Assembly: GCF_013315695.1 (NCBI RefSeq)
Contig: NZ_CP054355.1
Direction: 5' to 3' (one strand)
Length of the DNA stretch: 64,000 bases
Origin: Escherichia coli
GTDB lineage: Bacteria > Pseudomonadota > Gammaproteobacteria > Enterobacterales > Enterobacteriaceae
Part shown: one piece after another, positions 2,342-60,392 of the stretch
Layout: each line of letters opens with the position of its first letter
Numbering within the stretch: the stretch's first letter is position 1
Program-made: the position numbers and the translations under genes
Notes under the pieces: model-generated
What the model was told of the DNA's origin: nothing
Seen by the model: the letters and a program-made list of their open reading frames with translations, nothing else
Databases searched by the model: none

Positions 2342-2361
2342 TTATGTTATGTTATGTTATG
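2342..2361. repeat. Pentanucleotide tandem repeat (TTATG)x4
   Basis: Read directly: ttatgttatgttatgttatg in an AT-rich intergenic region. Confidence 0.6.
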
Positions 2362-2577
2362 GTCTTGTTCATGCATGAACTGTTATCTATTCAGTCACTT
2401 TTAACGTTTTATATCATACTGCATATGACACAATCATCTTCTATATTCAGATTAAAAATATTATGACGACGATCAAATAAATTTAGTGAAATCATTACTT
2501 ACAATAATATGTTTATGACATAATTTATCAAAAATATCCGACAACCTTCCTGAAAGGTTACTGCGAGGAGTCAAACA

Positions 2578-2640
2578 ATGAAGTGTAATAACTTATTCAC
2601 TCTTTTTTATGCTCTCTTTATAGCAAAACCAGGAAGTTAA
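2578..2640 (+). CDS. Putative 20-codon small ORF (MKCNNLFTLFYALFIAKPGS) preceded by GAGGAG Shine-Dalgarno
   Basis: Manual reading: GAGGAG about 8 nt upstream of ATG; stop TAA abuts the ATG of the following membrane-protein ORF; below ORF-track size cutoff. Confidence 0.25.
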   Translation: MKCNNLFTLFYALFIAKPGS

Positions 2641-2641
2641 A

Positions 2642-3811
2642 ATGAATCAGAAGTGGAAGACGCTAATAGTTTCAGTATTAACACCATCAAGTATTATATC
2701 AGGGATTGCGTTGATAGTTCTCTGGGGATATTTCAGTCGTCTGGATCGACTTGATATTTTCTTTGATGTGATGAATATTAAAAGCATCTTGGTATTGGTT
2801 TGTTGTACAACTATTCTATCATTGATTATGATCATTTTTATTTTTTTTATAACATCTTTTTTTATACCAATAGTTATTCCTTATGATATAAAAAATCTTC
2901 CTGCTTACAATAAGATTCAGGGTAATTTTTTATCTGTAATGATGTTATCTGGCCTCTTCCCCATGGCCTTTATATACGTGTTATACTGTGCATTTGATTT
3001 TGACCAGAGTGTTAAAGATAACTCTGGCTGGTTATCTATTTTAAGTATAGGAGTACTAATAGTTGTTATTTCAGCCATAATAAACACGAGGTATCTTGAA
3101 TATGACTTATCGTTTAAAAATAATAGAATGAAACTGTTGAGACGTGTTCAGATCTATCTTGTCATTCCGTTGTCTATTGCTTTACTGGTGCATCTTCAGG
3201 TAATTCCACTGGAGATGGTTTTTAGGAATATTGAAACTTCAGATAAGAGTATTAATTTCAAAGTGATAGCTGAACTGGCTTTCATGTCATATTTTATTTT
3301 TATTCTGACAATACTTCCCGGCCTCATTTATCTAAAAATGAATCCACAGCATAAACTTTCTAAAAGAATTAGTTCTGCATTTGTCGCATCCTTGATGATA
3401 TTATTAGTTATATCGACTCAAATAACCGTATTACCAGTAATTTTTACCCATTCAGTTATTAAGCTCTCAGGTATAAGTGACTTCAAAATACATAGCTACA
3501 TTATTAAAACAAGTGAATATCCGGAGGAGTTTTTTTCCAATGCAGTATGGGGTAAAAAAAATATAAAACCGGGGGAATATTACTCTGTGCAGGCTGTTTC
3601 TATGTTTACGACAAACCAGTTTATTCTCCTTTGTCCCAAGGATATTATAAGGTTTTATCGGGAAAGCTGGAAGTTCGACCTGCTTAATGTAGACTTCGAT
3701 ACAAATACCAGGAAGAAACTCCAGGAAGAAGCAGCATATTGCGTACCAATTTCTGCAATATCTGTAAAACGATGGGATATGCCTCTTCAGGGCTCGAAAC
3801 CCTCAAATTAG
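2642..3811 (+). CDS. Hypothetical polytopic inner-membrane protein (about 8 predicted TM helices plus about 120-aa C-terminal soluble domain)
   Basis: ORF track 389 aa; long hydrophobic stretches; AT-rich codon usage; no family recognised. Confidence 0.5.
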   Translation: MNQKWKTLIVSVLTPSSIISGIALIVLWGYFSRLDRLDIFFDVMNIKSILVLVCCTTILSLIMIIFIFFITSFFIPIVIPYDIKNLPAYNKIQGNFLSVMMLSGLFPMAFIYVLYCAFDFDQSVKDNSGWLSILSIGVLIVVISAIINTRYLEYDLSFKNNRMKLLRRVQIYLVIPLSIALLVHLQVIPLEMVFRNIETSDKSINFKVIAELAFMSYFIFILTILPGLIYLKMNPQHKLSKRISSAFVASLMILLVISTQITVLPVIFTHSVIKLSGISDFKIHSYIIKTSEYPEEFFSNAVWGKKNIKPGEYYSVQAVSMFTTNQFILLCPKDIIRFYRESWKFDLLNVDFDTNTRKKLQEEAAYCVPISAISVKRWDMPLQGSKPSN

Positions 3812-3889
3812 AAGGCCGCTCGTGCGACTGTATTAGATAGTAATGCGGTATGGAAAAATAGTGATGGCAAGATGAACTTGACTTGGCTA

Positions 3890-4141
<252 letters not shown>

Positions 4142-4657
4142 TTATTTCCGAACCTCGCCCTTGCCTGCGTAACCATCCGTCGCCCCCATCCTGTTTTCAG
4201 ACTGCGGAAAAAGGCAAGTTTTTATCCCCCCACAGAGATTCAATCATATATCGCGTGTTTTGGAAGTGACAGTTCTTATTCCTGAGAATACTGCATGTGC
4301 AACACACTCGGCATCCATCGATACCACTTTTATCTCCAATAGGCAGGATAAAAAACAAGACTGTGAATTAAAGTAATCGGCAAATGAATGAGTTAGAAGA
4401 TACTGAAAATGAATCAAGGACTAACCCCGTAGGGAATGAAAATAATAAAAGAACATCTTGTTTTTATTTTAATGAATGAGCATGTTCTTTTATATTAATA
4501 ACAAAACCTATCATTAAACAAAATGATGAATGACAGAGTTTTCTTTAAAATAGCTTATATTATCTTACAGTAGCTGACATAGTGCAATATAAATTATCAG
4601 CTATGCCATAACGGCTTAGCAGTGTCTAAGCGTAAGAATCAAGACTTCAGTTACAGT

Positions 4658-4873
4658 TTACTCACGGTAGAAATATTTAAGAGCACTAACAATACTGTGT
4701 GTATAGTTTAGTTTTTTTAGGCATAGGCAAAAATAACTAATGGAAACATTGTTCCTTTCACAACTTTCTTGCTTTGAATAACCATCAACCAAATACTCCT
4801 TAAGAGCCATGATGTTTTTTTTACTTCTGATTGGTGATATTTCAATTAAAAGTGAAAAGTGTTCTCCATTCAT
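4658..4873 (-). CDS. PapB/FaeB/PefB-family fimbrial operon regulator (orphan)
   Basis: ORF 4658..4930; segment EHFSLLIEISPIRSKKNIMALKEYLVDGYSKQESCERNNVSISYF parallels PapB (HFFLLIGISSIHSDRVILAMKDYLVGGHSRKEVCEKYQMNNGYF); likely start at internal Met. Confidence 0.55.
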   Translation of the reverse strand: MNGEHFSLLIEISPIRSKKNIMALKEYLVDGYSKQESCERNNVSISYFCLCLKKLNYTHSIVSALKYFYRE

Positions 4874-5454
4874 ACATGATTGAATTAGCTCTGTATTAAA
4901 GTTATTTCTTGGATAGGGGGAGGGAGTCATATATTATCTAACCTTATTTTTCTATTAAAGAATTGAAATAGAATAGACAGAAATGCTATTGGAGTAAGTA
5001 TTTGATAGTAGGTAATTTACGCTCCTATATAGACTATTGTTACTCATATAATATTTTGGGGTGGCTTATGTTGTGACAGCGCCAGTTGTTAAAAACGTTG
5101 TACCGTCATACGGGATAATATAGAACAACCAATAACGATTACTGGTCTATGACCACCGCCAGAGATACAGAAAAGCTTTATCTGTAATGAGCTCAACTAT
5201 ATATCCCGTCAACTGCTGGTTCAGAGCGTTGTCGTAAAAATCCTGTGCAAATAAATTAGTCATATATCAAGCCATTTACGCGGTAACTGGCAGGTCTGAA
5301 ATTTAACCTCCTGACGATGCAGGCTTGCATACATCCATAGTTTTACTTTGGTATGTGACTCTAAGTATGTAGATCATCAGTCCGGCATGGAACGCTGTTT
5401 TGACCCGCTAAAATCCTTACGGAAAAGTAAGGATGTGGATTTGCCCCTATATTT

Positions 5455-5568
5455 CCAGTCATCGGTTCGTCTGAGAATGACGTGCAACTGCGCACGCGAC
5501 ACCCGGAGACAACGGCTGACTAAGCTTACTCCCCATCCCCGGGCAATAAGGGCGCGTGCGCTATCCAC
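5455..5568 (-). pseudogene. insD: IS2 insD 5' fragment (truncated transposase OrfB)
   Basis: [38 protein letters not shown] then unrelated sequence. Confidence 0.7.
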
Positions 5569-5891
5569 TTTTTTGCACGCCCATATTCAACGGCTTCTTT
5601 AAGGAGTTCATTTTCCATCGTTTTTTTGCCGAGCAGGCGCTGGAGTTCTTTAATCTGCTTCATGGCAGCAGCAAGTTCAGAGGCAGGAACGACCTGTTCT
5701 CCTGCGGCCACAGCAGTAAGACTTCCCTCCTGGTATTGCTTGCGCCAGAGAAATAACTGGCTGGCTGCCACACCGTGTTGCCGGGCAACAAGGGAGACCG
5801 TCATTCCCGGTTCAAAGCTCTGCTGAACAATAGCGATCTTTTCCTGTGTAGTACGCCGTCTGCGTTTCTCCGGTCCTAAGACATCAATCAT
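5526..5891 (-). CDS. insC: IS2 transposase OrfA (InsC)
   Basis: Protein [56 protein letters not shown]... matches IS2 InsC. Confidence 0.85.
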
Positions 5892-6132
5892 CTGTTCTCC
5901 AATGACTAGTCTAAAAACTAGTATTAAGACTATCACTTATTTAAGTGATATTGGTTGTCTGGAGATTCAGGGGGCCAGTCTAAATTCCGTATTGCTGGTT
6001 CTTTATCGGTAGAAAAATCAATATCCATAGCATCGGTCGCAGGCGCTGATACATTGCAGAGCGACCGGGTATTAGAGTCGCTATTCACTGGTTATCACTG
6101 AACGCTGCGTGATCAGGGTTGCATTAATAAAA

Positions 6133-6152
6133 TGATATGTTATAACATATCA
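6133..6152. promoter_or_regulatory. Perfect 20-bp palindrome tgatatgttataacatatca, candidate Fur-like operator upstream of heme receptor gene
   Basis: Read directly; perfect dyad symmetry, AT-rich hexamers resembling Fur-box repeats; 21 bp upstream of ORF start. Confidence 0.35.
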
Positions 6153-6172
6153 ATATTAACATATATTTTCGC

Positions 6173-8143
6173 ATGTATATGAACGTAATCAGAAACGTCA
6201 TTTGTACATTAATCATACTCCCGATAGGGTTACAGGCAGAGACCAGTCATTCTTCTATGGCTAAAGATACAATCACCGTTGTCGCGACAGGAAATCAGAA
6301 CACGGTATTTGAAACGCCGTCAATGGTCAGTGTCGTCACGAATGACACGCCATGGAGTCAGAATGCGGTCACATCAGCCGGCATGCTGAAAGGTGTTGCC
6401 GGTCTCAGCCAGACTGGTGCAGGACGGACCAATGGGCAGACCTTTAATCTACGCGGCTATGACAAAAGCGGGGTACTTGTTCTTGTTGACGGCATCCGTC
6501 AACTCAGTGACATGGCAAAAAGCAGTGGCACTTATCTGGATCCGGCACTCGTCAAACGTATCGAAGTTGTCCGCGGACCAAACTCCAGTCTGTACGGCAG
6601 TGGCGGGCTGGGAGGTGTTGTGGACTTCAGAACTGCCGATGCAGCAGATTTCCTTCCCCCCGGAGAGACAAACGGTTTAAGTCTGTGGGGAAATATCGCC
6701 AGTGGTGACCACAGCACAGGCTCGGGGCTCACCTGGTTCGGTAAAACCGGAAAAACAGATGCGCTCCTTTCTGTCATTATGCGTAAAAGAGGTAATATCT
6801 ATCAAAGTGATGGTGAGCGCGCACCTAACAAGGAAAAACCTGCAGCCCTGTTTGCGAAAGGCTCTGTCGGTATAACAGACAGTAACAAAGCAGGTGCCAG
6901 CTTGCGTCTCTACCGGAATAACACCACTGAACCGGGCAATCCCACTCAGACACATGGTGACAGCGGCCTGCGTGACAGAAAAACAGTACAAAATGACGTA
7001 CAGTTCTGGTACCAGTACGCTCCTGTGGATAACAGCCTCATCAATGTAAAGTCAACTTTATATCTCAGTGATATCACTATCAAGACAAACGGTCACAACA
7101 AAACGGCAGAATGGAGAAACAACAGAACCTCCGGTGTTAATGTTGTCAACAGGAGTCATACTCTGATTTTTCCGGGAGCCCATCAGTTAAGTTATGGCGC
7201 TGAATATTACCGTCAGCAGCAGAAGCCAGAAGGCTCTGCCACACTATATCCGGAAGGAAACATTGACTTTACATCGTTGTATTTCCAGGATGAAATGACA
7301 ATGAAAAGCTACCCGGTTAACATTATCGTCGGTTCCCGCTATGACCGGTACAAGAGCTTCAATCCCCGTGCCGGAGAACTGAAAGCCGAACGCCTGTCCC
7401 CAAGGGCGGCGATTTCAGTCTCACCGACAGACTGGCTGATGATGTACGGCTCCATATCCTCTGCATTCCGTGCCCCCACAATGGCAGAAATGTACAGGGA
7501 TGATGTACATTTTTACCGCAAGGGTAAACCCAATTACTGGGTACCTAACCTTAATCTGAAACCAGAAAATAACATTACCCGTGAGATTGGCGCAGGTATT
7601 CAACTGGACGGCCTGCTTACAGGCAATGATCGGCTGCAGTTGAAAGGCGGATATTTCGGAACGGATGCCAGAAACTATATTGCCACGCGCGTGGATATGA
7701 AACGGATGCGTTCTTATTCTTATAATGTATCCCGGGCCCGTATCTGGGGATGGGATATGCAGGGAAATTACCAGTCTGATTATTTTGACTGGATGCTTTC
7801 TTATAACCGCACGGAAAGTATGGATGCCAGCAGCAGGGAATGGCTGGGCTCCGGCAATCCTGACACACTCATCAGTGACATCAGTATACCTGTTGGTCAT
7901 GGAGGAGTTTCTGCCGGATGGCGTGCTGAACTTTCGGCAGCAGCCACGCATGTGAAAAAAGGCGATCCCCATCAGGCTGGCTATGCCGTACATTCCTTTT
8001 CACTGTCTTATAAGCCTGTAAGTGTTAAAGGCTTTGAGGCATCAGTGACTCTGGATAATGCCTTCAACAAGCTTGCCATGAATGGCAAAGGAGTGCCGCT
8101 TTCAGGCAGAACTGTCAGTCTTTATACCCGTTATCAGTGGTAA
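6173..8143 (+). CDS. TonB-dependent outer-membrane heme/hemoglobin receptor (ChuA/ShuA family)
   Basis: 656 aa; N-terminal TonB-box-like DTITVVA; blocks YGAEYYRQQQKPEG, SAFRAPTMAEMY, YWVPNLNLKPE and C-terminal YQW closely parallel ChuA. Confidence 0.8.
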   Translation: MYMNVIRNVICTLIILPIGLQAETSHSSMAKDTITVVATGNQNTVFETPSMVSVVTNDTPWSQNAVTSAGMLKGVAGLSQTGAGRTNGQTFNLRGYDKSGVLVLVDGIRQLSDMAKSSGTYLDPALVKRIEVVRGPNSSLYGSGGLGGVVDFRTADAADFLPPGETNGLSLWGNIASGDHSTGSGLTWFGKTGKTDALLSVIMRKRGNIYQSDGERAPNKEKPAALFAKGSVGITDSNKAGASLRLYRNNTTEPGNPTQTHGDSGLRDRKTVQNDVQFWYQYAPVDNSLINVKSTLYLSDITIKTNGHNKTAEWRNNRTSGVNVVNRSHTLIFPGAHQLSYGAEYYRQQQKPEGSATLYPEGNIDFTSLYFQDEMTMKSYPVNIIVGSRYDRYKSFNPRAGELKAERLSPRAAISVSPTDWLMMYGSISSAFRAPTMAEMYRDDVHFYRKGKPNYWVPNLNLKPENNITREIGAGIQLDGLLTGNDRLQLKGGYFGTDARNYIATRVDMKRMRSYSYNVSRARIWGWDMQGNYQSDYFDWMLSYNRTESMDASSREWLGSGNPDTLISDISIPVGHGGVSAGWRAELSAAATHVKKGDPHQAGYAVHSFSLSYKPVSVKGFEASVTLDNAFNKLAMNGKGVPLSGRTVSLYTRYQW

Positions 8144-43450: not shown

Positions 43451-43845
43451 CTAGCCTTTTCGTAATCATGCCATTGGAGATCATCTGGATTGATGTTAGG
43501 CATGACGTCTTGGCTGTAAAGCAAAAAATCAAGTGAGTCATCCATGATCTTCTCAAAACGCTTACTGCGGTTGTTTCTGTCACTAATAGAGCCCGCCTGA
43601 TACCACCTTTCCGACAACTGCCGATATCGAAGGAAGTGCTCATCCTCTTTCAGTTGATGAAACTGGTTCCTGATTTGTGCATCAAGCCGAATTGCCAGAC
43701 CAGTAAAATCAGGTAACACAACCTTATGAGGGGCATTTTTGGGAGAAATCAGAGAAATGAATTCAGAAACCTGCATATCCTTGCTCTGAGGCCCGTAACG
43801 TTTATCAGAGCGGCGGGTGCCAATAAAAAAGCTTTCAATCGTCAT
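43451..43845 (-). CDS. Hypothetical protein (about 130 native codons, 3' end fused into Tn3-family IR)
   Basis: ORF 43399..43845 continues into the IR, so the native C-terminus is probably lost. Confidence 0.3.
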
Positions 43846-45236: not shown

Positions 45237-46094
45237 TCAGGGGGAAGCTGTAGCCAGCCGGCTGTAATTGCGGTTACGTGACAGAATCATGCGCTCCTTC
45301 ACACGACGCTCCACTTCGCGTTTTACCGTCTCACCATTAGCAGTAAAGCGCCCTTCCGAGATTTCACGCGTCAGCTGCCGTTTCACCAGGGTGACGATAT
45401 CCTGACGTTCCCTGTTCGCATCACGACGCGCACGGGCACGTTTTATTCCACGGGACTTAAGCTCTGTCTGGTAACTGCGGAAACGCTCACGCACAAAACG
45501 CCAGGCTTTCGCTATTAGTTCATCCATACCCAGGGTATCCAGCCCCTGTTTTTTGCGCTGTCTGTTTTCCCATTCAACACGACTGCGGCGCGCAGCTGCC
45601 ACTGCATCCTCAGACACATCAAGGGCAGCAAACAGAGCCGGTGTGAACGTGATATCGGTCGGAATGTAGCACCCGATAAGCGGGTCATATTCCGTCTGGT
45701 AGGTAATCAACCCCAGCTCTGACAGGAACGTCAGGGCACGGGTGGCACGAGTGATGGAGAGTTTTCCTGCACCGGACTCTGTCGCCAGTCCGCACTCAAT
45801 GGCCAGCGTGGTGATGGAGCACTGGACGCGGTTGGCCAGCGGGTCATAGTGGAAACACAGCCCCTGCAGGAGCGCATCAATAGCCCGTCGACGCAGCACC
45901 GGTGGCATGCGTCGACGCAGACCACGCGAACGGGCATGCGCCACATGAATGGCGAAATCAAAACGGGAGGTGAAGCCCACCGCCTTTTCCATCAGTTTTT
46001 CGCAGAACTTCAGCGTTCCGGCACCTTTACGGGGTGTAAACACCGGATTCGGGTTCTTTACCTGGCGGTAATACGTTTGGTGAAGATCAGTCAC
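45237..46094 (-). CDS. repA1: IncFII (RepFIIA) replication initiator RepA1
   Basis: ORF 45237..46106; ...[64 protein letters not shown]... matches R100/R1 RepA1. Confidence 0.9.
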
Positions 46095-46231
46095 ACCATC
46101 CTGCACTTATGTTGCACAGAAGGAGTGAGCACAGAAAGAAGTCTTGAACTTTTCCGGGCATATAACTATACTCCCCGCATAGAGCAACAGCTTCTATGCA
46201 GTTTCTTGTTAGCCCCGGTAATCTTTCCTAC

Positions 46232-46330
46232 TCGCCAAAGTTGAAGAAGATTATCGGGGTTTTCGCTTTTCTGGCTCCTGTAAATCCACATCAGAACCAG
46301 TTCCCTGCCACCTTACGGCGTGGCCAGCCA
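46232..46330 (+). ncRNA. copA: CopA antisense RNA region of the IncFII replicon (approximate)
   Basis: Leader sequence gttgaagaagattatcggggttttcgcttttctggctcctgtaaatccacatcagaaccagttccctgccaccttacggcgtggccagccac recognised as the CopA/CopT target region; boundaries and strand inferred. Confidence 0.4.
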
Positions 46331-46405: not shown

Positions 46406-46654
46406 TTAGCTAAAAGCACTCTTCTGCTTTATCAGTTCGGCAATCATCTCAGCCTGGGTAACGCCCTCAGCTTCACACATCACCTGCAATTGCGCTTTTA
46501 ACGCAGCAGGAATGAACACTCTGAGTTCTTTATGTGTAGCTCGTTTTCTTGCCAGGGATGCCTGCTGACGTTCTGCAAGCGTCAGAGGATTACCTTTTCT
46601 GTATGCTCGCTTTGTACCTGATGAGGAAGTCACTGCATTTTCTGTCTGCGACAT
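46406..46654 (-). CDS. repA2: IncFII copy-number repressor RepA2 (CopB)
   Basis: 82 aa basic protein directly upstream of the repA1 control region. Confidence 0.8.
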
Positions 46655-46810: not shown

Positions 46811-46895
46811 TTTTCAGTTATGGAAACGCCGGGAGCGGGGAAAACTTGCTTTTTCCCGTTTCCGGGGTTGGACAACTGAGCAACGCGAAGGCGTC
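46811..46895. repeat. Conserved about 85-bp element, copy A (gttttca..ggaaacgccgggag...ccggggttggacaac.gagcaacgcga.ggcgtcagc) followed by hairpin
   Basis: About 75 percent identical by eye to 59537..59620; both copies lie just 3' of a minus-strand gene. Confidence 0.6.
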
Positions 46896-47484
46896 AGCTA
46901 CGATGTTCCGGGGACTGCTGATCAGCCCCTGTTGTATTCAGCCATTCTCCGGTCATCTGCAGCAGTTTTCTGGCATCGTGGCTTCTGAGCAACGGAATAC
47001 CAGCCTGCCTCAGAACCTCTTCCAGAAGAATATCCCGGCGTCTGCGTTCCGGTCGTAAATGGCTGGCATCATCCAGCTCTACTGCTGCAACAATACTGAA
47101 CGAACGCCGCTCAACGATAACCACATCAACATGCCACTGAGACACCATCCTGAATAACTGCCACCACTGGCGTGATCGTGGCCGGATATTCCCGTTCAGC
47201 TGGACGATATCCGCGACCCGTACCTGCGGACACAGATACCACCGCTTCATATCCACAATTCTGAACAGTCCTTTCATAAAACTGACTTCCCTTTCTGTCA
47301 GCAGCGTCTTCTGACGTTGCCAGTATTCACCGCCGGACAGTATTCGCTCTGCATCACCGGTCCGTATACCTGCCGCATGCAACTGCATCAGCAAAGGAGA
47401 ATGCTGATTTACACTTCTGAGGATAATCCGGATAAGTAACGCTGCAATAATCAGAACAATGAGAATAAAAATAATCAGCTTCAT
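46894..47484 (-). CDS. Conserved IncF backbone protein with N-terminal TM helix (possibly DUF2726 nuclease-like)
   Basis: 196 aa ORF; position between repA2 and finO; family from memory only. Confidence 0.45.
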   Translation of the reverse strand: MKLIIFILIVLIIAALLIRIILRSVNQHSPLLMQLHAAGIRTGDAERILSGGEYWQRQKTLLTEREVSFMKGLFRIVDMKRWYLCPQVRVADIVQLNGNIRPRSRQWWQLFRMVSQWHVDVVIVERRSFSIVAAVELDDASHLRPERRRRDILLEEVLRQAGIPLLRSHDARKLLQMTGEWLNTTGADQQSPEHRS

Positions 47485-48238: not shown

Positions 48239-48826
48239 GTTATTCTCCATATCAGATAAATGGCACCTGTATTTCAGGCATCCTGAACATTGCAGCACAC
48301 AATGAATAACACCTTGTTTTGTGAAATAAATCACAAAATATAAAATCTCGACTTAATACGGAAAAAACTCTGTGCTACTCAGAACTGTACGGTCATACTG
48401 CCCGACCGGATATTAAAAAAAGCAAATCTCATGCATTATTCAGCCTTCTGAATCCCTGGAGTAATGAAGGCTGCTTTTTTCGTTACACCCTTCCCCGGCT
48501 GCGCCGGTGGCAGTGTTCAGCCCTTTTTCGGGCAAACTGCTGCCAGTCTGTCCGGGGCGCAACACCGGCAGCCCGTCGCCATGCTTCTGCCGCTTCCATC
48601 CAGCGTCCACTGACCTCCAGAATAACGGCCCGGCTTCCGGCACGCTGCCAGCGCCAGACCTGACCGTTCCGTGAACTGTTTCTGAATCCATTCATCTTTA
48701 TCACTCCTCTTTAACCCGTCAGTATTATGGTGTTAAATAATCTACTGAATTGGCTTCCTTTCGGGTACGGAAGTTATTTCCTTTTAAGCCTTATTTCCCT
48801 GCCTCCTCTCTGATGGAGGCTTTTTT

Positions 48827-51174: not shown

Positions 51175-54100
51175 TCAGTCTCCGCCCAGGGTTTTCTCTT
51201 TCTGCAGGTCACGAACCATATCCCGCTCCATCTGCTGCAGACGCTCCTGCAGCAGATTTTCCCGGGCAACCTCCCGGACCGCTTCCCGCTCCCGTTGTGA
51301 TTCACGCAGCACACTCTCCGGCAGTGCGGTTTCCCGTTCAGATATGGCAGACCGGTCACGCTCCTGTCCGGCAATATCCCTGACAGCCAGCTCTGTTTTG
51401 CCATCCGGCAGGTCAGGTTTGTTCTCTGCCATTTTCCTGACAATTTCATCTGCGCGGCGTTCCGTTTCACGGCGGATGGCCTCTTCAGCCTGCCGCTGTG
51501 CCAGTACCTCTGCCGTGACCGGTTCGCCATTTCCGGCCCCCGGCTGGACGCTGTTATCCGGGATATCCCCCCACACGCGGCCACCGGTGATGGCACCGGG
51601 ATTCCACGGACGACCTTCACCGGCAATTCTCACCACCACACCGCTGTCAGGATTATCACGGGCAATCCGGACGCCATCCTGCATATTATCAGCCAGCAGG
51701 CTCTCTCCGTTACGGCTGCCCTGCAGGGCCACGAACTGCGCATCCCCGCTGCCTTTCACCCGTCCTTCACCACTGAATCCCCGCAGCCCGTTTCCGTCAT
51801 CCGTGGTCAGTGGGTTCAGCCAGATACCAGCTGACTTGCCGTTACGGTCAAACGCCGGCAGTGCCACATACGGCTGCGGATATTTACGTCCCGGTGCAAT
51901 AAACCGTGCAGGGCTGTCTCCCCCGGCCAGCCCTGCCTGACGGAGAACGGCACGGCCTGCCGCCACGTCCCGCAGTTCCCGTGCCGTACTGAACAGCCGC
52001 TGCGCATTCATGACCTCCCGGTCCGGTTTCGGCTCCAGCACATCGTGGGCAGTTCCTTTCTGTACGGCATTGTTAATGGCATCCGTCCAGCCCTGACGGT
52101 TATCGGTGTACACCTGCACATGCTGCTTCATACGCGACAGGGCCACGTAGGCTGACTCAAAGCCGGCCATCAGTTTCCGGTTACCTTCCGTGCCTTCAAG
52201 CGCGATGGCAAAGGTTTCACTCGCCCCCTGCGCACCGTGGGCGGTGATGGCATAAGCCAGGTCAATATGTTGCTCTGCCCGCTCCTGGCCGGGGCGAATC
52301 ACCCGGGTCTGCTGTCCGTCTGACAGCGTGACACTGTCACCGGAAACCGCTGTCACCGTCCAGACGCTGTTGGCCACATAACCGCGCTCCCGGTCACTCT
52401 TCGTGAAGCGCATCCGGTCGCCGGTCCCCACCCGGATTTTGTCCGGGGTGTACAGTGTGACACCTTCAGCCACCGCCTCCCGGGGCGAAATCAGCCGCGT
52501 GTTACCTTCCGCATCCTCCAGGGTTATCAGCCCGTCATCCTTGCTGATACCGGCAATCCGGTGATACACACTATCCACCAGGGCAAGGGCATCCGGGTTA
52601 TTCTCCCAGGTGGAGAGACGACGCAGCTCCCCGTCACGTATATTCGCTGTGTTCAGGACAGGCACCATGACCTGCTCTTTCCCCAGCTCACCGGCCTTTT
52701 CCCGTGCATCATGAATCATGCTGTTCAGTACGCGCCGGTCCTCATTCAGGTGCGTGACAATCAGCGTCTGCTCCCGTGCTTCCGGTGTCCTGCCGGTATA
52801 GTCGCGGACAATGGCTTCATACAGTGTCATGGGGACATCCGGAAAAGTCTCACCTTTCAGCATCGCCTTCTGCTGCGCTTCTGCCAGTTTCGCTTCCTGG
52901 CTGTGACTGAACTCCGTCACGGAGTGCTCCGGTGCCCATGCGCCCTCCTGACGGGGAACCTGAGACGGTTTCACACTCTCAAGCCCGGACAGTGCCCTTT
53001 CCACATCCCGGTTAATCAGGCTGTATACCGCCTCCCGCAGTTCCGGCGTCTGACGCACAATCTCCTTCATGATGACCACATCGGCAGCACTGCGCGTCTG
53101 CTGGAGACGGAAAGGCTGACCGGGCGCGATGGCCTGCAGCTGGTCCGTGTCACCACTGGCCACGGCACGACCGCCACCGGCCGCAATCAGGGCGTATGCC
53201 CGTGCCATGTCGGTATTGCCCACCATTGAGCTCTCATCGAGCAGGAACAGCGTGTTGCTGAAATCCGGCGTTTCTCCGCTGCGCTGCTGCAGCTGCGTGT
53301 CATGCAGAAAGGACGCCAGCGTCTGTGCATCCACGCCGGCGCTGCGCATCTCACCGACCGCACGGTGCGTGGGCCCCAGCCCCACAACTCGGGGACGCTC
53401 ACTCGCCGGCAGCATGTTCACGGCTGACATCACCGCCCGGAACTGTGTGGTCTTACCCACACCGGCATAACCCTGTACCACCGTGAAACGGTCGGACGTT
53501 TCCAGTATCATACGGGTGGCGGCACGCTGTCCCGACGTTAACGTCTCCATGAGTTCGCCGGGTACTCTCTCCATCAGCGGCGTGACCGCCTCCTTACCTT
53601 CGAGAATATGGCGAAGAATACTTTTTTCTGCCTCATACGACGCACGGGAAACCAGCAGGCCTGTGCCATAGCCTTTTGCCACATCCACATACAGTAAGTC
53701 ACCGCGTTTTATCTGCGCATTGATTTCCCCTCCCAGTTCAGTAAAACCGGTTCCTTCTGCAGCAAACGACTTCGCCTCTGTCAGCAGGTCCACCATGCTG
53801 AAGGCCAGGTTTTTACTTTCCAGCACAGGAAGGGCCAGATGAATGGCCTGCTGTGCCGGCGTGTGCAGCCCGGTTTTCTGCAGACTGATAGCGGTTTCCA
53901 GCGATGTCTCACCGGCCCGCGCCTTTATCTGCTCAGAAACCACCGTAAAGGAGGGATGGCGGGCAAGTTTTTCCGCAGTACGGGTTTCATCCAGTGAGGA
54001 ATACAGCCGGACATCACGACCGCTGCGGGCCAGACCGTTCAGGGTGGCGTTGTCCATTGCCATCTGTGTGACGGAGGCAAACACCGTCGCACTGTCACTG

Positions 54101-56445
54101 ACGGAATGCCCGGGCGTTTCCACCCAGCCGTTCTCCAGCTTCAGTGCCGTGAACGGTGAATCAGCCACAGGCAGGGTGGCCGGTTCAGCCCGCCCCGGCA
54201 CAACAACCGTCATCGCATCTTCACTGACGGATGCCACCTGCAGGCGGTCACCGCCGGAGACGCGGAGTCCGGGAATTTTCCCTGTCACCCTCAGTCGCTC
54301 GCCGTCTGCCACCGGCATTTTTTCCGGCCGGAACAGCGACCAGCTGCTGTCCAGGGAGGAAATACGCACCACCTGCGTTTCGCCCTGCGCATCCCGCAGG
54401 GTCAGGCTGTGACTCTGCGCCGTCACCCGGTCGATAACATAGCGGTCATGACTGCGTGTCTCCGGGTTCCACTGCTCCATCACCATCCCCGGTCGGTACA
54501 TATCCCGCAGATAACGGCTCCGGCTGTCCAGCCAGACCGGTGACAGGGCGGTCATGGTCACCTCCGGGTGTCCGAGCACGCCCTGTGTTTTCAGCTCACT
54601 GCGAATGGCCTGTGTCAGTATGGCCTGTTCCCGTACCCCGCTGACCTGTGCCACGCTCTCTTCTCCGGCTTTCACGCTGGCCGCAAAATCTCCGGCCAGC
54701 CGGTCATAGCGGACATTCCGGTCCGGTTCACTGATGATGGTTGCCGGTCGCTGTTCTCCGCCCTGCCAGCGATACGTGTTCACCCCGGTATCCTTCATGG
54801 CCATCAGCGCACTGCCTGTACCGGTTCGCTGCCCGCTGTCGGTTATCAGGACCTGTACGTTATGACGTGCGGCACCGTCCAGCAGGGTTAACGTCTCTTT
54901 CAGGGAGAGTTTTTCGCCCTGGTCGACGATAACAGTACTGCCCGGCGTGAAGACCATGCCCTCCTGCAGCTGACGACGTCCGGTTATCAGCTCACCGGAC
55001 AGCCGTTCATCCTGCTTCAGGTTCATCTGCGAGCGACGGTCAGCAGCGATAATCTGCACCTCCCGCCCCTGCTCCCGGGCCATCATGACCAGTTCAGCCA
55101 CCCGCTCACGCTGCCCGGCTGCACCGCCCTGCCCGGACACAATGGCCAGCGACGGACGGTCCTGTGCCAGAACACTGACCGCATCGCTGTAACCAGCCGT
55201 CCGGGGGACACTTTTCTCCGGATGTACGGTCACCCGGTTCTGTTTCATGATGTCACGACTGAGTGCCCGGACGGACAGCTCATCGAGCACATGAATTCCT
55301 GATGTGAACAGCCCCTTCTCACGGTCGAGGGGGATAAGCTGCTCACGGCTGATGGCCTCATCGATACCGGCGCGTGCCCGTTCAATCACACCATTTTCCG
55401 GCGGCAGTATGCCGACCGTCCTGGCCAGCACGTCCGTATACGTGAACTGCACTTTTCGTTCACTTAATCCGGCAATCGCCTGTGTCACCGCCTGCTGCAC
55501 ATCCGGCCCGTCCTGTGAAGCAGGCCCGGGCGCCTGCGTGCGGATCTCCGCACGCTGATCCGCCGCGTCACGATATGCCCGGATGTCGAACCCGGTTTCC
55601 TTCAGCGTCTGCATCCATTCAGCCATTCTGATTTCCGGATCGACGTGCTGTTTGGATTTACGCGTATCCAGTGCCGCCACATCCCGGGATTTCAGCGAGG
55701 CGTCTTCCCCGACGGCCTCCCGGATAGCCTGTGAGCGTCCGGAAAAGGCCTCCACCGGTACGCCCGGCATCTCCCACATACCGTGCTTACCCACCACTTC
55801 GGTTTCATAGCCCAGCGCCTCAACCTGCTCTTTCAGTTTTTCCCGGTAGAGCCTGCCAAAGGCAATCTGATTAGCGTACACATTCTCAATGAACCCCGTT
55901 TTCCCCACTTTGTCACTGCTCAGTGTCTTCCACTCACCGTTATGCTGCGTGACATTAGCCACCACCGCATGCGTGTGTAACTGTGGTTCCTGATCGCGAC
56001 TGGTGTCGTGGTTAAACAGTGCCATCACCAGATTACCGGTCAGCACCGTTTCTGACTGTCCGTCCGTCATCACCCGTGTGGAGGCCAGCGCCTCCACCTG
56101 ACGAACAGCAAAGTCCACGGCCTGGTTATGTGCATCAATCAGGCGCTTATCGCCACCTAACATGGCCATCATGGAGACACTTTTGGGGGCGGAGAAGGTC
56201 AGGTCGTAGCCGGGACGATGCTTATTACTGCCATCCTGCATGCGGCTTAGATCCGCTCCGTCCGGCAGCCTTCCCTCCAGAAGACGGGTAAAAACATCCT
56301 TATCGACACTGCCCTGCAGTCCCAGCTGTTCAGCCCCCCTGCCGGCCCAGCGTTCTCCCATGCTGCCCAGTACATAGTAATTATCCTTGTCGGTATAATA
56401 GTTACCGGCACTTCCGGCCGATCTGACCTGCGCGATACTCATCAT
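51175..56445 (-). CDS. traI: Relaxase/helicase TraI
   Basis: 1756 aa; N-terminal relaxase, helicase Walker motifs; F TraI length and sequence pattern. Confidence 0.95.
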   Translation of the reverse strand: MMSIAQVRSAGSAGNYYTDKDNYYVLGSMGERWAGRGAEQLGLQGSVDKDVFTRLLEGRLPDGADLSRMQDGSNKHRPGYDLTFSAPKSVSMMAMLGGDKRLIDAHNQAVDFAVRQVEALASTRVMTDGQSETVLTGNLVMALFNHDTSRDQEPQLHTHAVVANVTQHNGEWKTLSSDKVGKTGFIENVYANQIAFGRLYREKLKEQVEALGYETEVVGKHGMWEMPGVPVEAFSGRSQAIREAVGEDASLKSRDVAALDTRKSKQHVDPEIRMAEWMQTLKETGFDIRAYRDAADQRAEIRTQAPGPASQDGPDVQQAVTQAIAGLSERKVQFTYTDVLARTVGILPPENGVIERARAGIDEAISREQLIPLDREKGLFTSGIHVLDELSVRALSRDIMKQNRVTVHPEKSVPRTAGYSDAVSVLAQDRPSLAIVSGQGGAAGQRERVAELVMMAREQGREVQIIAADRRSQMNLKQDERLSGELITGRRQLQEGMVFTPGSTVIVDQGEKLSLKETLTLLDGAARHNVQVLITDSGQRTGTGSALMAMKDTGVNTYRWQGGEQRPATIISEPDRNVRYDRLAGDFAASVKAGEESVAQVSGVREQAILTQAIRSELKTQGVLGHPEVTMTALSPVWLDSRSRYLRDMYRPGMVMEQWNPETRSHDRYVIDRVTAQSHSLTLRDAQGETQVVRISSLDSSWSLFRPEKMPVADGERLRVTGKIPGLRVSGGDRLQVASVSEDAMTVVVPGRAEPATLPVADSPFTALKLENGWVETPGHSVSDSATVFASVTQMAMDNATLNGLARSGRDVRLYSSLDETRTAEKLARHPSFTVVSEQIKARAGETSLETAISLQKTGLHTPAQQAIHLALPVLESKNLAFSMVDLLTEAKSFAAEGTGFTELGGEINAQIKRGDLLYVDVAKGYGTGLLVSRASYEAEKSILRHILEGKEAVTPLMERVPGELMETLTSGQRAATRMILETSDRFTVVQGYAGVGKTTQFRAVMSAVNMLPASERPRVVGLGPTHRAVGEMRSAGVDAQTLASFLHDTQLQQRSGETPDFSNTLFLLDESSMVGNTDMARAYALIAAGGGRAVASGDTDQLQAIAPGQPFRLQQTRSAADVVIMKEIVRQTPELREAVYSLINRDVERALSGLESVKPSQVPRQEGAWAPEHSVTEFSHSQEAKLAEAQQKAMLKGETFPDVPMTLYEAIVRDYTGRTPEAREQTLIVTHLNEDRRVLNSMIHDAREKAGELGKEQVMVPVLNTANIRDGELRRLSTWENNPDALALVDSVYHRIAGISKDDGLITLEDAEGNTRLISPREAVAEGVTLYTPDKIRVGTGDRMRFTKSDRERGYVANSVWTVTAVSGDSVTLSDGQQTRVIRPGQERAEQHIDLAYAITAHGAQGASETFAIALEGTEGNRKLMAGFESAYVALSRMKQHVQVYTDNRQGWTDAINNAVQKGTAHDVLEPKPDREVMNAQRLFSTARELRDVAAGRAVLRQAGLAGGDSPARFIAPGRKYPQPYVALPAFDRNGKSAGIWLNPLTTDDGNGLRGFSGEGRVKGSGDAQFVALQGSRNGESLLADNMQDGVRIARDNPDSGVVVRIAGEGRPWNPGAITGGRVWGDIPDNSVQPGAGNGEPVTAEVLAQRQAEEAIRRETERRADEIVRKMAENKPDLPDGKTELAVRDIAGQERDRSAISERETALPESVLRESQREREAVREVARENLLQERLQQMERDMVRDLQKEKTLGGD

Positions 56446-58670
56446 CAGAAATCATCTCCCGGCTCAACATCCTCCCCACGCTCCCGGTGCACATTAATGT
56501 TCACCTCTTCACGACGCTGCATCTGCTGCTGGATGTCCGGATGATTTTCCTGTTGCCATGCCTCATAAGCGGCCATATCCACCACTTCACCGGATTCACT
56601 GATCCCGGGTGGCAGTTGCTGTTCCATCTCTTCTTCCGGTTTCATTTTCAGCTCCTGCTCGATCCCCCCTGCCGGAACACTCACACCTGCATCTGACTTC
56701 TTATCATTGATGACAGAAGACACTGGCTGTTGTGGCTGTTGTGGCTGTTGTGGCTGTTGTGGCTGTTGTGGCTGTTGTGGCTGTTGTGGCTGTTGTGGCT
56801 GTTGTGGCTGTTGTGGCTGTTCAGCCTGAGTCACATCTTCTCCGGAGGCAACCTCCGGTTCAAAGAGGCTGGCCATCTGACGACCTTCTGCTTCCCTTGC
56901 GGCAAGTACGGCACTCAGACGGTTCTCCATTTCCGGGTTGATGTCACGCGGAATAAACTCCGGAGCGACCTTCGGTCGTGCCTGATATTTCAGAGAGAGT
57001 TTGACTGCCGGATACGGTCCGGGCAGAGTGACATAGCAGGTCAGATCCGGCAGAGACTGAATGTCGGAATAACTGACCAGCGTCTGACGCTCCATATCCT
57101 TACCGGTCGATACCCCGTCACGTACCGGGTCAGCACCGTAGGAATACTGCTCGCTGGCTTTCAGGTGCTCTTTCTCACCAATCTCACCGGCAGCGAACTC
57201 TGCAATCTTATGGCTCGGGGAACGGAAAAAAGCACGGGTGTTCATGACGTCAAACAGCGTGGCCGCCGCTTTCTCACCGTAGATATCTTCCAGCTGGGCA
57301 TAGGACTGGATACCAAACACATAACAGCCACCGAACTTACGGGCTTCCGGCAGGATCTCCACCAGGTCCGGCAGTTTGTGTAACGTGGGTAACTCGTCAC
57401 AGAAAAACCACACACGACGGTTACGGTTTTCTCCCATTGCCAGCAGACCACGAATGGCAATGGACAGCCACATGGAGATCACCGGCTTCAGGGAGGCATG
57501 GGTGTCGGCGTTCGACGAAATAAACAGCCAGCCGTTTTTCTGATCTTCCCGGACACCACGCATCCAGTCACGGATGGTAAAAGACTCACCGTTATGCTCA
57601 ATCCCCTGCAGGTAACGGATGGCTTTCACGTAGTTGGTCAGCACAGCACGGATGGAAATCGCCGTTTTCTCAATTTTCTCTTCCACCAGGTTGGCTGCCG
57701 GTGAATTACGCAGGAAGGTACGCAGTTTTTCAATTTTGATGGAAAGCAGTGTGTCCACCAGTTTGCTGTAGCTGCGGTTGGGGTCATTACGCATCAGGTA
57801 CGCCGCTTCCGCAAAAATGGTACGTCCTGAACCCTGCCAGAACGGGTCCTCTTTTGTACCCATAGGGATCAGAGTATTTGCGGTATTATCAAAATCCGGC
57901 TGTGTCAGGCACTCCTTCCACAAATCCCATGCGGCACAGCGGGCATCCAGCGGATTCAGGATTTTATCGATGGAGGGATCATAGTAACTTTTAACAAATT
58001 CCCCTGAACGGTCATAAATCACCACCATATCACCGCGCTGACGGGCATAGTTGGCCAGACGACGGATAACCTCCGACTTACCGGCCCCGACCGTGCCGTG
58101 CAGACAGAAGTTCTGGATTTCGGAATCCCGGATAATCGGCAGGTCGCCAATCCGGATATCGGAGTCCTTGCCGTCTTTTTTCAGCATCCGGGCCACTTCT
58201 TTCGGGTTATCCGTCAGCTGACGCCCGCCGGTCACCTCATTTTCACTCTGCTGTTTCCCCTGATGCCCCAGAATCCAGGAGACAACAAAGAAGGTGATCA
58301 GGCAAATAACCAGGGCCACGACAGACGCCAGAACGAATGCAGACCATAGCTGCTCTCCGCACCAGATCATATATTTATCATGCAGTACCTGGGCAGCGTT
58401 CATCCGGAAGGTTTTGCCGTAATACTGGATCTCATAGACCGGCTGGGATTTTATTAAATCCCGCATGCCTTCCAGTGACGTACACCACCAGTAAATACAG
58501 CCGTTGATAAACGTCTGCCAGCTTATTTTTACCCATAAGACCAGACCAATGAGGATCCAGAAAAAAATAAACAGGCAGTAAAGCATGATATTGGCGATCT
58601 GGCTGAACATGCGGATACGCATGGACGCAATCTGACCGCCCTGGGTCATATCCTTTGCGTTAAAACTCAT
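56445..58670 (-). CDS. traD: Type IV coupling protein TraD
   Basis: 741 aa; N-terminal TM helices, Walker A, C-terminal QQP repeats. Confidence 0.95.
56725..56818. repeat. Tandem 9-bp repeat (ggctgttgt, about 10 copies) encoding QQP repeats within traD
   Basis: Read directly; in-frame within traD. Confidence 0.85.
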
Positions 58671-58720: not shown

Positions 58721-59458
58721 TTAATTCACAGAAACAGACCAGGTGTACCCTGTATGCCGGTGGTGATGCCCGCCTGCAGTCCTGCCGGAAGAGACCTTCT
58801 CTGTAACAATGTCAGTCAGGCGCAATACTTCAGACCAGTCACTCCCATGCGGAAACTGGATCTGAATAAAAAGGCGTACCCGTTCACGGTGATCCAGAAC
58901 TGTGTCCGGTTCATAAAAACGGCCACTGTCAGGAGAAACACAGGACGTTTTATTGATGAGATCATACTTATCGGCAGGAGACTGCGATGAAATCGCCCAG
59001 GTGATATTCTCCGCCTGGTGGCCATCAATACGACTGCTCCCCGGCGTCCATGCAATTTCCTGCGCACTCGCCACGATGATCTCCCTGGAAACTTCAGCCA
59101 GCTTTCTGGGTGTACAGAATACCGGTGCCAGCACACACAGGGACAACAAATTACAGCTGACCGCCTCCGGTTTAAGCAAATTGCTCCCGGATTTTTCAGG
59201 AAAAGATATTTTTGTCAGTATTTCAGTTAATTCCTTATGCCTGAGAGAATTAATAAAGTACATGATAAGCATCATGAGAAACAATATAACAATAAGCCCT
59301 CCGATAACCACTAAAAGGTCAGTATCAATATTATTGCTGTACAGATAGTCTTTAGTGGTCACTGTATTATCCTGTATCACCGGGGGGTATTCAGTTACAG
59401 GCTTCTCAGTAAATTGATTATTCTCACCAACATATTCAGCGATATTGTCTGATGTCAT
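58721..59458 (-). CDS. Hypothetical single-pass membrane protein inserted between traT and traD
   Basis: ORF 58721..59524, probable start [10 protein letters not shown]; one TM helix ([22 protein letters not shown]); no family recognised. Confidence 0.4.
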
Positions 59459-59536
59459 AATGACTTTCTCCGGAAGATCCCGGCTTCGCCGGCAACACTT
59501 CACGGTCGCACAAAGAATTTGCACAACCGCTCAGTG

Positions 59537-59620
59537 TTTTCATATTTATTTCGGAAACGCCGGGAGGTGACAAAATTTATTTTGTTACATCCCGGGGTTG
59601 GACAACGAGCAACGCGAGGC
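59537..59620. repeat. Conserved about 85-bp element, copy B, followed by hairpin ggaggc..gcctcc
   Basis: See copy A at 46811..46895; lies just 3' of traT. Confidence 0.6.
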
Positions 59621-59660
59621 GTCAGCAAGGAGGCCGGTCAGATCAGCCTCCTGACGAGGT

Positions 59661-60392
59661 TCAGAGAATATTTGCGATTGATTTGGCCAGTTGGTCTTCG
59701 AGAACAGGCTTCGCCTCTTCAAATTTCAGGTTAACCTTGTTCGCATTTGAAACCACACGGGTCTGGTATTTATGCTGGTTACCTGTTTCAGTACTGGTCT
59801 GAATTTTCGCACCTGATGTGCCCTGACGCAGGGCGGCAACATTATCCGTTGTCACCGTTGCCTTAGTACGCTCTGCAATCTGTACATCCGTGATCATGGT
59901 ATAGTTCACATCTTCCACCATCGCATCTGCAGCCATACCCACCAGACCAGCAGCAAGGCCTACACCGAGTGTGGCACCGGCAGAATTTGAGTTATAGCCG
60001 GTAATACCGGCACCTAACGCTGCACCAACAGCTGCGCCTTCATAACCACGGTTCAGCCATCCCTGAGACTCCCGCAGATCCATCTTATCAGCCTTCAGCA
60101 CATTCGCCTGAATCCAGTAGTAGGCTTTATCCGGAGAAGTCACCACCTGATATCCTTTTGCTTTCACAGCATCAGCAATTTTGCCCTGCAGCCCACTCAT
60201 GTCTTTATCAGACGTGTTTTTGATCTGCAGAAATACCGTGCGTTCGCTGGCGGGTTCAAGCCAGATGGTCTCACTCATCTGAGTCTTCACCTCAAGGTTA
60301 CGCTTCTTGATTGCTGTGCTCATCGCACCACACCCTGAAAGGGCCAGAGTGGAACTGACCAGTGCAACCATCATCAATTTTTTTGTTTTCAT
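59661..60392 (-). CDS. traT: Surface exclusion / serum resistance lipoprotein TraT
   Basis: 243 aa [47 protein letters not shown]... matches TraT. Confidence 0.9.

Follow-up and report, generated by a model that had tools for sequence, protein, structure and literature searches.

The window analysed here is a 64,000-nt stretch of an Escherichia coli contig (NZ_CP054355.1, assembly GCF_013315695.1), read on one strand. It contains two copies of an element of roughly 75 nt, one lying between a 196-aa DUF2726 gene and the replication gene repA2, and the other between traT and a 245-aa open reading frame (ORF) that precedes traD. The genes adjoining both copies are all on the minus strand. The element is real, non-coding and very widespread; it is constrained on the strand opposite to the genes and is placed between modules. 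An earlier note on this DNA had put an element of about 85 bp at positions 46811–46895 and 59537–59620, 3′ of two unrelated genes, the 196-aa gene near repA2 and traT. The gene map agrees with that placement and the location holds, the conserved core being shifted slightly, to 46823–46897 and 59554–59625. Both cores were placed with R1, a covariance model built from relatives of the element. The cores and their parts are:

46823–46897, plus strand: copy 1, complete core (GAAAC...GGCGTCAG); R1 score 95.2 bits, E 6.7e-24
46825–46869, plus strand: copy 1 long hairpin, AAC.CCGGGAGCGGGGAAAA, loop CUUGC at 46845–46849, then UUUUUCCCGUUUCCGG.GUU; from RNA folding and covariation
46870–46876, plus strand: copy 1 junction GGACAAC (the preceding GTT completes GTTGGACAAC), invariant or nearly so in 41 unique members, which were collected with patterns that demanded part of it
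46877–46897, plus strand: copy 1 small hairpin domain and terminal GGCGTCAG
59554–59625, plus strand: copy 2, complete core; R1 score 80.0 bits, E 9.3e-20
59556–59599, plus strand: copy 2 long hairpin, loop UUUA at 59576–59579, stem sequence unlike that of copy 1
59600–59625, plus strand: copy 2 junction GGACAAC, small hairpin domain and GGCGTCAG

On the plus strand, the unit runs from GAAAC through the long hairpin, the junction GGACAAC (G-GTTGGACAAC where the two meet) and a small GC hairpin to (A)GGCGTCAG. The long hairpin is built from AAC.CCGG, a variable stem of about 12 bp, a loop of 4–7 nt and a closing CCGG.GTT. The small stem covaries among subfamilies, which carry GACGCC/GGCGTC, GCCC/GGGC, GCTC/GAGC or GCC/GGC. 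The blocks GTTGTCCAAC and CTGACGCC are invariant and the core is near-palindromic. When aligned, copies 1 and 2 share GGAAACGCCGGGAG, CCGGGGTTGGACAAC, GAGCAACGCGA and GGCGTCAG in the same order and orientation, and this alignment, together with the E values of the model, confirms that the two copies are real. They are separated by three 1-nt indels and by a central stretch of about 22 nt that is unlike in sequence and self-complementary in each. No third copy rose above noise in the 64-kb window, either with the covariance model or in a pattern scan.

The likeness between the copies is confined to about 75 nt and is non-coding. This short extent, the three indels and the unlike, self-complementary centre show that it is not a piece of a longer duplicated coding segment, the explanation that the earlier note had named as fatal to its proposal. 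The list of ORFs shows that both copies overlap small plus-strand ORFs, in frames that differ between the copies. With the indels and the compensatory stem changes, these differing frames uphold the view that conservation acts at the nucleic-acid rather than the coding level.

The borders of the family are sharp. Homology ends at CTGACGCC on one side and at GGCGTTTC on the other, beyond which the flanks are unrelated. CTGACGCC is the start of the element in gene sense, and within the main family its TGA terminates at least four unrelated ORFs, namely that of the DUF2726 protein (...EHRS*), a 103-aa ORF (...TTKS*) and two ending in ...IIKIH* and ...KQHTA*. In relatives of the element, the same TGA ends traI and a gene associated with mobilization, so that the stops of at least six unrelated genes are abutted in all. 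The junctions of relatives L112 and L098 keep 7 or 18 nt of the 3′ end of the DUF2726 gene, which suggests that flanks were swapped by ordinary illegitimate events while the core was retained.

The long hairpin comprises 17 pairs in plus sense, and 96.0% of cells are paired. Compensatory double changes occur at six pairs (51 cells). No shuffled control out of 500 matched the observed pairing or covariation score, and controls with slid partners reached at most 76% pairing. The covariation analysis suggested in the earlier note thus bears out the hairpin. Reading the mirrored structure in gene sense gave 84.6% of cells paired. For the 41 unique sequences, RNAalifold returned a consensus energy of -24.87 kcal/mol in plus sense and -7.89 kcal/mol in gene sense; the mean single-sequence energies were -35.4 and -27.0, respectively. 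The window copies behave likewise. An 83-nt segment around copy 1 (46818–46900) folds as RNA at -38.5 kcal/mol on the plus strand (z -5.0) and -23.6 on the minus strand (z -1.7), and an 82-nt segment around copy 2 (59549–59630) folds at -31.2 kcal/mol (z -4.9) and -24.1 (z -3.05). Energies computed with DNA parameters are -20.4 on the plus strand versus -15.9 on the minus strand for copy 1, and -20.3 versus -13.7 kcal/mol for copy 2. In all independent subfamilies, the sense opposite to the genes is the more stable (for example, -36.0 versus -20.4 kcal/mol in relative L160), and among loosely matched elements, a set that contains some chance matches, plus sense was more stable in 76 of 92.

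The mismatches in the stem carry the strand preference. Counted in plus sense, 819 cells are Watson-Crick pairs, 93 are G.U, 13 are A.C and 17 are of other kinds, figures that overstate the number of independent events since the sequences are related by descent. G.U states are common and shared among sequences at nine pairs, whereas A.C states are singletons. A single lineage holds the stem states GAG/TTT, GGG/TTT, GGA/TTT, GGA/TCC, AAG/TTT and AAG/CTT, with A never opposite C. Consecutive runs of two or three G.U pairs occur (for instance, in L104 and L091), and RNA tolerates such runs better than DNA does. G.U pairs in gene sense, which are the 13 A.C cells of plus sense, are as rare as transversion mismatches (17 cells), and this rarity is most simply read as selection on plus-sense pairing. 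Selection to interrupt a hairpin in the mRNA, or a mutational bias, would give the pattern less simply, and deamination linked to transcription or to the lagging strand would push the asymmetry the opposite way.

The loops agree with the stems. At least 11 distinct plus-sense loops, on stems that share no sequence, fit Y-U-N-R with N free, among them CUUGC, CUGGC, CUCGC, CUCGU, CUAGC, GCUUGCA, UUUA and UUCA; the two exceptions are minor variants. The gene-sense loops of real members have no YUNR, save the palindromic GCUAG. YUNR U-turn loops are reportedly a recognised hallmark of antisense-RNA recognition loops, a point ascribed to Franch and co-workers in 1999.

A BLAST search of PLSDB matched at least 5000 records per copy, including R100, F, pO157 and pSLT and plasmids of Klebsiella, Shigella, Salmonella, Enterobacter, Citrobacter, Yersinia and Serratia. 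Copy 1 is 100% identical in pO157 and many IncF plasmids; copy 2 has 100% identity in R100 (NC_002134) and 88% in F. When species-representative genomes and metagenomes were scanned with patterns, Pantoea, Kluyvera, Izhakiella, Buttiauxella and Entomohabitans joined the list, and in total about 145 instances emerged, with 46 unique cores in some 30 unrelated flank contexts. The patterns demanded GTTGTCCA and CCCGG, and the invariance of those bases is therefore partly built in. The BLAST search over plasmids that the earlier note had advised thus found the element widespread in large plasmids of enterobacteria, chiefly F-like ones. Phage homologues of the element were not found. Individual plasmids carry 2–3 copies. 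In gene sense, the downstream neighbour varies by plasmid and can be a gene for a PLD-family nuclease ahead of repA2 (24–39 nt away), a hok-type locus (about 50 nt to its extended -10), repA2 (about 167 nt) or traD (145 nt in F).

A weaker match to the model and a relaxed pattern brought in relatives that keep the small domain (CTGACGCG, small hairpin, CTTGTCC(AAC)) and have unrelated long hairpins. One fills the space between traI and traX of IncFII(K) plasmids, with the traX ATG 16 nt downstream. Another subfamily sits 135–210 nt upstream of P1-type parA and is found in 1907 PLSDB records, including pSLT and pFra of Y. pestis. The genes to its left vary (Rpn, resolvase or ATPase) and lie on the opposite strand, usually in divergent orientation, and no co-oriented upstream gene is present. 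Their positions are:

L155:5946–6013 (NZ_CP020838, IncFII(K)), also L052, L111 and L128: traI–traX relative, with the traI stop TGA in CTGACGCG and a 10+6-bp hairpin with a UUUA loop
L156:2511–2590 (pSLT p798_93, 43491–43561), L010:861 and L160–L164: subfamily upstream of parA, CTGACGCGCCC..GGGCTTGTCCAACCC plus hairpin

A further relative follows an integrase gene in pLVPK-type plasmids, and another (L134:3034–3110) lies beyond the stop of a 177-aa gene, which is itself downstream of a MOBQ-like mobA. The orientation of this last, element-like sequence is opposite to the F-type backbone of its own contig. The copy in pFra has decayed, as have those of two E. coli IncFIB plasmids. In two further cases the long hairpin has been lost naturally and precisely while the small domain stays, one in an S. 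Gallinarum plasmid (L032:1500–1560), where GTTGTCCAGG is joined directly to TACGGAAT, and one in L105, where ...CCCCGG is joined to AAATAAAT.

Around the two copies, the window holds the following features:

45237–46106, minus strand: repA1
46179–46268, plus strand: CopA RNA by Rfam match, about 550 nt from copy 1 and on the strand of the copy 1 fold
46406–46654, minus strand: repA2/copB, the first gene downstream (gene sense) of copy 1, 168 nt off; homologous loci are annotated 'replication regulatory protein RepA'
46894–47484, minus strand: 196-aa DUF2726 gene, an ORF recorded as 'DUF2726 domain-containing protein' or YihA in matching plasmid records
46910–46929, no strand assigned: flanking hairpin GGGGACTG...CAGCCCC, within the DUF2726 coding sequence and flank-specific
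56445–58670, minus strand: traD
58721–59458, minus strand: 245-aa ORF between copy 2 and traD, without an NCBIfam match
59628–59652, no strand assigned: flanking hairpin AGGAGGC-N11-GCCTCCT, between the traT stop and copy 2, outside the conserved family core
59661–60392, minus strand: traT, upstream (gene sense) of copy 2, by annotation of homologous loci

The TGA stop of the DUF2726 gene (46894–46896) is the TGA within the terminal CTGA of copy 1, and a thermonuclease-like gene lies next beyond that gene. The traT stop (59661–59663) is 35 nt from copy 2, with traS and traG beyond traT. The GC-rich hairpins that the earlier note had seen after each copy are present, at 46910–46929 and 59628–59652, but they are specific to their flanks; neither is conserved across the family as part of the unit. 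The 245-aa ORF is missing from F and pSLT, where traD comes directly, and in S. Gallinarum plasmids a different low-GC insert occupies its site between traT and traD.

Three further observations concern this surrounding DNA. Between copy 2 and the next gene, about 75 nt of the minus strand (59470–59548) are conserved above the element itself when R100, F, pSLT and S. Gallinarum plasmids are compared; in IncFII(K) the conservation is looser. A small ORF (MKTLSGCANSLCDREV...) lies in this segment, as does a hairpin, GCCGGCGAAGCCGG, with AAUUU after it, and the segment may be the real traT terminator, or a traD promoter or leader. Within traD, positions 56706–56846 contain eleven tandem 9-nt units (TGGCTGTTG), which code for the (QQP)n tract in the C-terminal region of TraD. 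Elsewhere, matches of identical score to the ALIL pseudoknot, a frameshift signal of the IS3 family, lie at 14054–14170 (minus strand) and 25087–25203 (plus strand), inverted and about 11 kb apart, which suggests a composite cargo segment bounded by insertion sequences (IS).

The strand on which the element folds can be set against the direction of transfer. The tra genes, psiA/psiB, ssb, parAB and repA2/repA are co-oriented in the Klebsiella plasmid pBK13043-1, in pSLT and in pCf76. In the leading region, genes are expressed from the single strand that enters the recipient (PMC7690428; PMC9849209). Given this co-orientation and mode of expression, the plus strand of the window, the complement of the tra mRNAs, would be the strand transferred in conjugation. 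The folding strand is the template strand of tra, psiB and ssb in every conjugative plasmid examined: both copies in the window, both in IncFII(K), all three in pSLT, and the parA copy of pCf76, the sole copy examined there.

Consensus scans of both strands detected neither a sigma-70 promoter nor an intrinsic terminator at copy 1 or copy 2, and so the open list of the earlier note (terminator module, small RNA or recombination site) lost its canonical terminator. The sequence after the long hairpin in gene sense is CGUUUC(U/C), and in the window copies the tail CGUUUCC falls short of the at least five U in 8 nt that we required after a GC-rich stem; relative L162 has a textbook stem followed by UUUUGAAUUU. 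By manual count, about 9 of 15 independent flanks have a run of T after the small hairpin in plus sense. Searched as a whole at gathering threshold, the window matched only CopA, AS-traI, AS-traG, AS-pc02 and ALIL in Rfam 15, with nothing for the element, and a search of both copies in E-value mode returned matches at chance level only (c4-2, 17 bits against a cutoff of 41). The three AS- families lie on the plus strand, AS-pc02 at 48402–48586, AS-traI at 53520–53596 and AS-traG at 62933–63018. These are antisense families described from pHK01, and their matches suggest that the anti-tra strand is transcribed in this type of plasmid.

Taking these results together, we tentatively favour the reading that the element is a self-contained two-hairpin module of about 75 nt that acts at the RNA level as a boundary or insulator, its functional fold being that of a counter-transcript. 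The active fold would be on the strand complementary to the flanking mRNAs, the plus strand of the window, and would work as a folded single strand. Its active form would be RNA, either a counter-transcript in its own right or a structured part of longer counter-transcripts, which could start from promoters, antisense or divergent, that belong to the downstream modules (those of CopA and Sok, for example) or from divergent -10 elements. The long hairpin would display the YUNR U-turn loop alongside the conserved single-stranded GGUUGGACAAC, and loop and GGUUGGACAAC together might pair with sense read-through RNA, terminate against it, or end counter-transcription. The outcome would be a downstream module (repA2–repA, the PLD nuclease, hok, parAB or traD) insulated from transcription of the upstream gene, and vice versa. 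We infer the three parts of this proposal, namely that the plus strand is transcribed here, that RNA rather than single-stranded DNA (ssDNA) is the active form, and that the mechanism is one of insulation. The tolerance of G.U pairs, tandem ones included, and the YUNR loop favour RNA over DNA.

The closest known systems are CopA/CopT of IncFII plasmids, FinP/traJ and Sok/hok. These are likewise 70–90 nt long. Each has a long imperfect stem-loop, with G.U pairs in the stem and a loop of the YUNR type, from which a single-stranded stretch leads to a second hairpin, and they are encoded opposite mRNAs of the plasmid backbone; as in them, the YUNR loop of the element belongs to a hairpin folded in the antisense sense. 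Unlike them, the element has no conserved promoter of its own, no conserved canonical terminator and no Rfam match. It also lies opposite intercistronic or boundary sequence rather than a 5′ untranslated region or ribosome-binding site, and it recurs at several unrelated boundaries.

Several observations count against an RNA insulator. Its main weakness is that no conserved promoter or terminator and no transcript were observed. Across some 30 flank contexts there is no conserved plus-sense -35 or -10, and the lone -10-like hexamer near copy 1, TAGTAT, reads TAGTAG in 30 related sequences. A canonical plus-sense terminator follows the element in Pantoea plasmids only, and most contexts are without one. 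No small RNA is listed in the Salmonella transcriptome annotation for the traT–traD interval or for the region ahead of repA2 (PMC6333337 supplement). Elsewhere in the window we found no complementary target for the conserved GGUUGGACAAC, near-matches being fewer than expected by chance. The genes for the PLD nuclease and TraX start 16–38 nt after the element and leave no room for a promoter, so that a full block of sense transcription there would be impossible. The decayed and hairpin-less copies in some plasmids indicate that the element is useful and not essential. The shared descent of the counted sequences, given above with the cell counts, belongs on the same side.

A folded signal in ssDNA is the alternative that survives best, although we consider it somewhat unlikely. 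Under this explanation, dispersed hairpins of fixed orientation on the transferred strand would recruit host priming or replication machinery, in the manner of ssi sites or primosome assembly sites (PAS), or another factor specific for ssDNA. The folding strand is the right one in all the conjugative plasmids examined, and the DNA-parameter folds likewise favour it. The element is self-contained, so promoter and terminator would not be needed, and its sharp borders and conserved unpaired bases fit recognition by a protein. Known G sites and PAS, of the G4 and phiX174 types, are also orientation-specific folds of 70–100 nt in ssDNA with hairpins and conserved unpaired bases. They and Frpo/ssi lie on a strand that becomes single-stranded, as the element's strand would. 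To our knowledge, F-like plasmids have no primase of their own, and the phiX174-type primosome assembly site is recognised by its stimulation of PriA ATPase and of primosome assembly on SSB-coated ssDNA and has no sequence consensus. A 1991 study by Nomura is reported to have mapped ssi sites on F and R100. The initiation of complementary-strand synthesis on F has been described as unresolved (PMC9849209).

Against this, orientation is wholly confounded with gene orientation, the backbone genes lying nearly all on one strand, and the whole-plasmid maps of pSLT, pBK13043-1 and pCf76 yielded no case in which the two part. Runs of two or three G.T would act as internal loops in DNA, and the conserved YUNR loop has no known meaning there. 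There is no 5′-CTG-3′ primase start and no similarity to the G4 origin, and, in contrast to the known initiation signals, the element is not in the leading region. Nor does Frpo offer a match. It is a hairpin of about 300 nt that presents duplex -35 and -10 boxes (PMC7690428), whereas the stem of the element, at 17–20 bp, is too short for both boxes and has no such hexamers. Intact copies also occur on plasmids typed as only mobilizable (pLVPK-type L157 and Y. enterocolitica L001), and a decayed copy, L164, sits on a plasmid typed as conjugative.

A second alternative is that the element is a plain terminator in gene sense, or tandem terminators combined with an mRNA 3′ stabiliser, with the strand asymmetry as a side effect. 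Its position speaks for this, as it begins at or just past the stops of at least six unrelated genes, and GC-rich hairpins followed by CGUUUC(U/C), with the textbook stem of L162, resemble intrinsic or bidirectional terminators. An insulator-like site upstream of the autoregulated rep, par and hok promoters would also make sense. A 1987 paper by Jalajakumari reportedly described terminator activity after F traT, where dyad symmetries were noted as terminators decades ago. Sense RNA does fall across the traT–traD interval. In pSLT, RNA-seq counts per sample are 1739–6647 for traT and 27–523 for traD (PMC6333337 supplement); the interval holds a copy of the element, has three hairpins and shows a drop of more than 50-fold, which the boundary reading would accommodate as well. 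In the IncFII(K) plasmid pBIC1a, reads per kilobase per million fall from 282 at traT to 7–8 (PMC6286996). However, pBK13043-1, of the same type, has no copy after traT, and the similar drop in pBIC1a implies that other hairpins of the region can do the job.

The pattern of constraint also departs from what a terminator predicts. The consensus scans and the inadequate U tract have been described. Gene-sense mismatches are A.C in 93 cells and G.U in 13, the opposite of what selection for an mRNA hairpin would give, and some variants hardly fold in gene sense at all, as in L160. A plain terminator does not predict a hairpin constrained on the plus strand, antisense to the genes it follows, and it leaves the invariant non-stem sequences CTGACGC and TTGTCCAAC and the YUNR loop without explanation. 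Genes 16–38 nt downstream, for the PLD nuclease and TraX, require read-through, and a full block at the traI–traX relative would silence traX. The parA subfamily has no co-oriented upstream gene to terminate. It is true, as the earlier note had framed it, that the copies lie 3′ of genes, but their tie to downstream repA2, PLD nuclease, hok, parA, traD or traX is at least equal. The element is probably more than a plain terminator, and we regard termination as its sole function as unlikely.

Improbable in our judgement is a recombination site used as a folded strand, or a small mobile element, that marks module junctions in the way of integron attC sites or miniature inverted-repeat transposable elements (MITEs). 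The comparison arises from the sharp borders with unrelated flanks on both sides, the position right after stops, and a variable central hairpin between conserved ends that, like attC behind its cassettes, conserves structure and folds on the strand antisense to the gene. The AAC/GTT closing pairs are present, and GTTGGAC of the element agrees with the attC R′ consensus, GTTRRRY. Genes for integrases, resolvases, Rpn proteins or relaxases are frequent neighbours in relatives. The ends of the element, ACGCC/GGCGT, are weakly inverted; MITEs and repeats like repetitive extragenic palindromic sequences would have terminal inverted repeats, target-site duplications and many dispersed copies. However, the partner of GTTGGAC is GGAAAC and not RYYYAAC, so that an R box is not formed; the R″/R′ boxes are non-complementary beyond the AAC/GTT pair, and attC sites have no counterpart to the conserved small-hairpin domain. 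There is no cassette array, and an integron integrase (IntI) was not noticed, though no systematic search for one was made. The junctions with the flanks lie at variable distance from the core, which fits illegitimate recombination with selection keeping the core; they show no target-site duplications, and there are only 2–3 copies per plasmid.

Hardly any weight goes to a protein-binding site in duplex DNA built on the near-palindrome GTTG-N2-CAAC: GTTGTCCAAC and CTGACGCC are invariant and the core is near-palindromic, but the motif varies in relatives (AAC, AGC, AGG or GCT), and strand-asymmetric tolerance of G.T together with covarying unrelated stems could not arise from duplex recognition. 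Other candidates were rejected individually. By eye, the defining positions mismatch or vary among relatives for boxA/nut-like antitermination (TGCTCGTTGTCCAA compared with rrn boxA), for a DnaA box (TTGTCCAAC, 6 of 9 positions), for a Ter/Tus core (GTTGTAAC, with a 2-bp insertion) and for a LexA box, sigma-54 spacing, Xer/dif and the TraI nic sequence. A G4-type primase site was set aside as well, since neither hairpin has a conserved CTG on its 3′ side in the folding strand and R1 has no match in G4. IesR-1 of pSLT belongs to a different locus, PSLT047–mig5.

Literature searches with sequence strings did not find the core 14-mer in a plasmid context. The homology between the dyad symmetries after F traT and the repA2-proximal element, the family in plasmids of Enterobacterales, its strand asymmetry and its conserved U-turn loop all appear to be undescribed, although F, R100 and pSLT are among the most studied of plasmids, and the element is missing from Rfam. 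If the antisense fold works as RNA, as we tentatively propose, IncF backbones would hold a reusable RNA insulator that borders replication, partition, toxin-antitoxin and transfer modules on their upstream side. This would bear on how circuits for copy number and maintenance are isolated from the 30-kb tra operon and from cargo in resistance plasmids. If the fold instead acts as DNA on the transferred strand, the start of complementary-strand synthesis in recipients would become directly testable for plasmids without a primase. Either way, the covariance model provides a marker by which the boundaries of modules can be annotated in clinical plasmids by the thousand.

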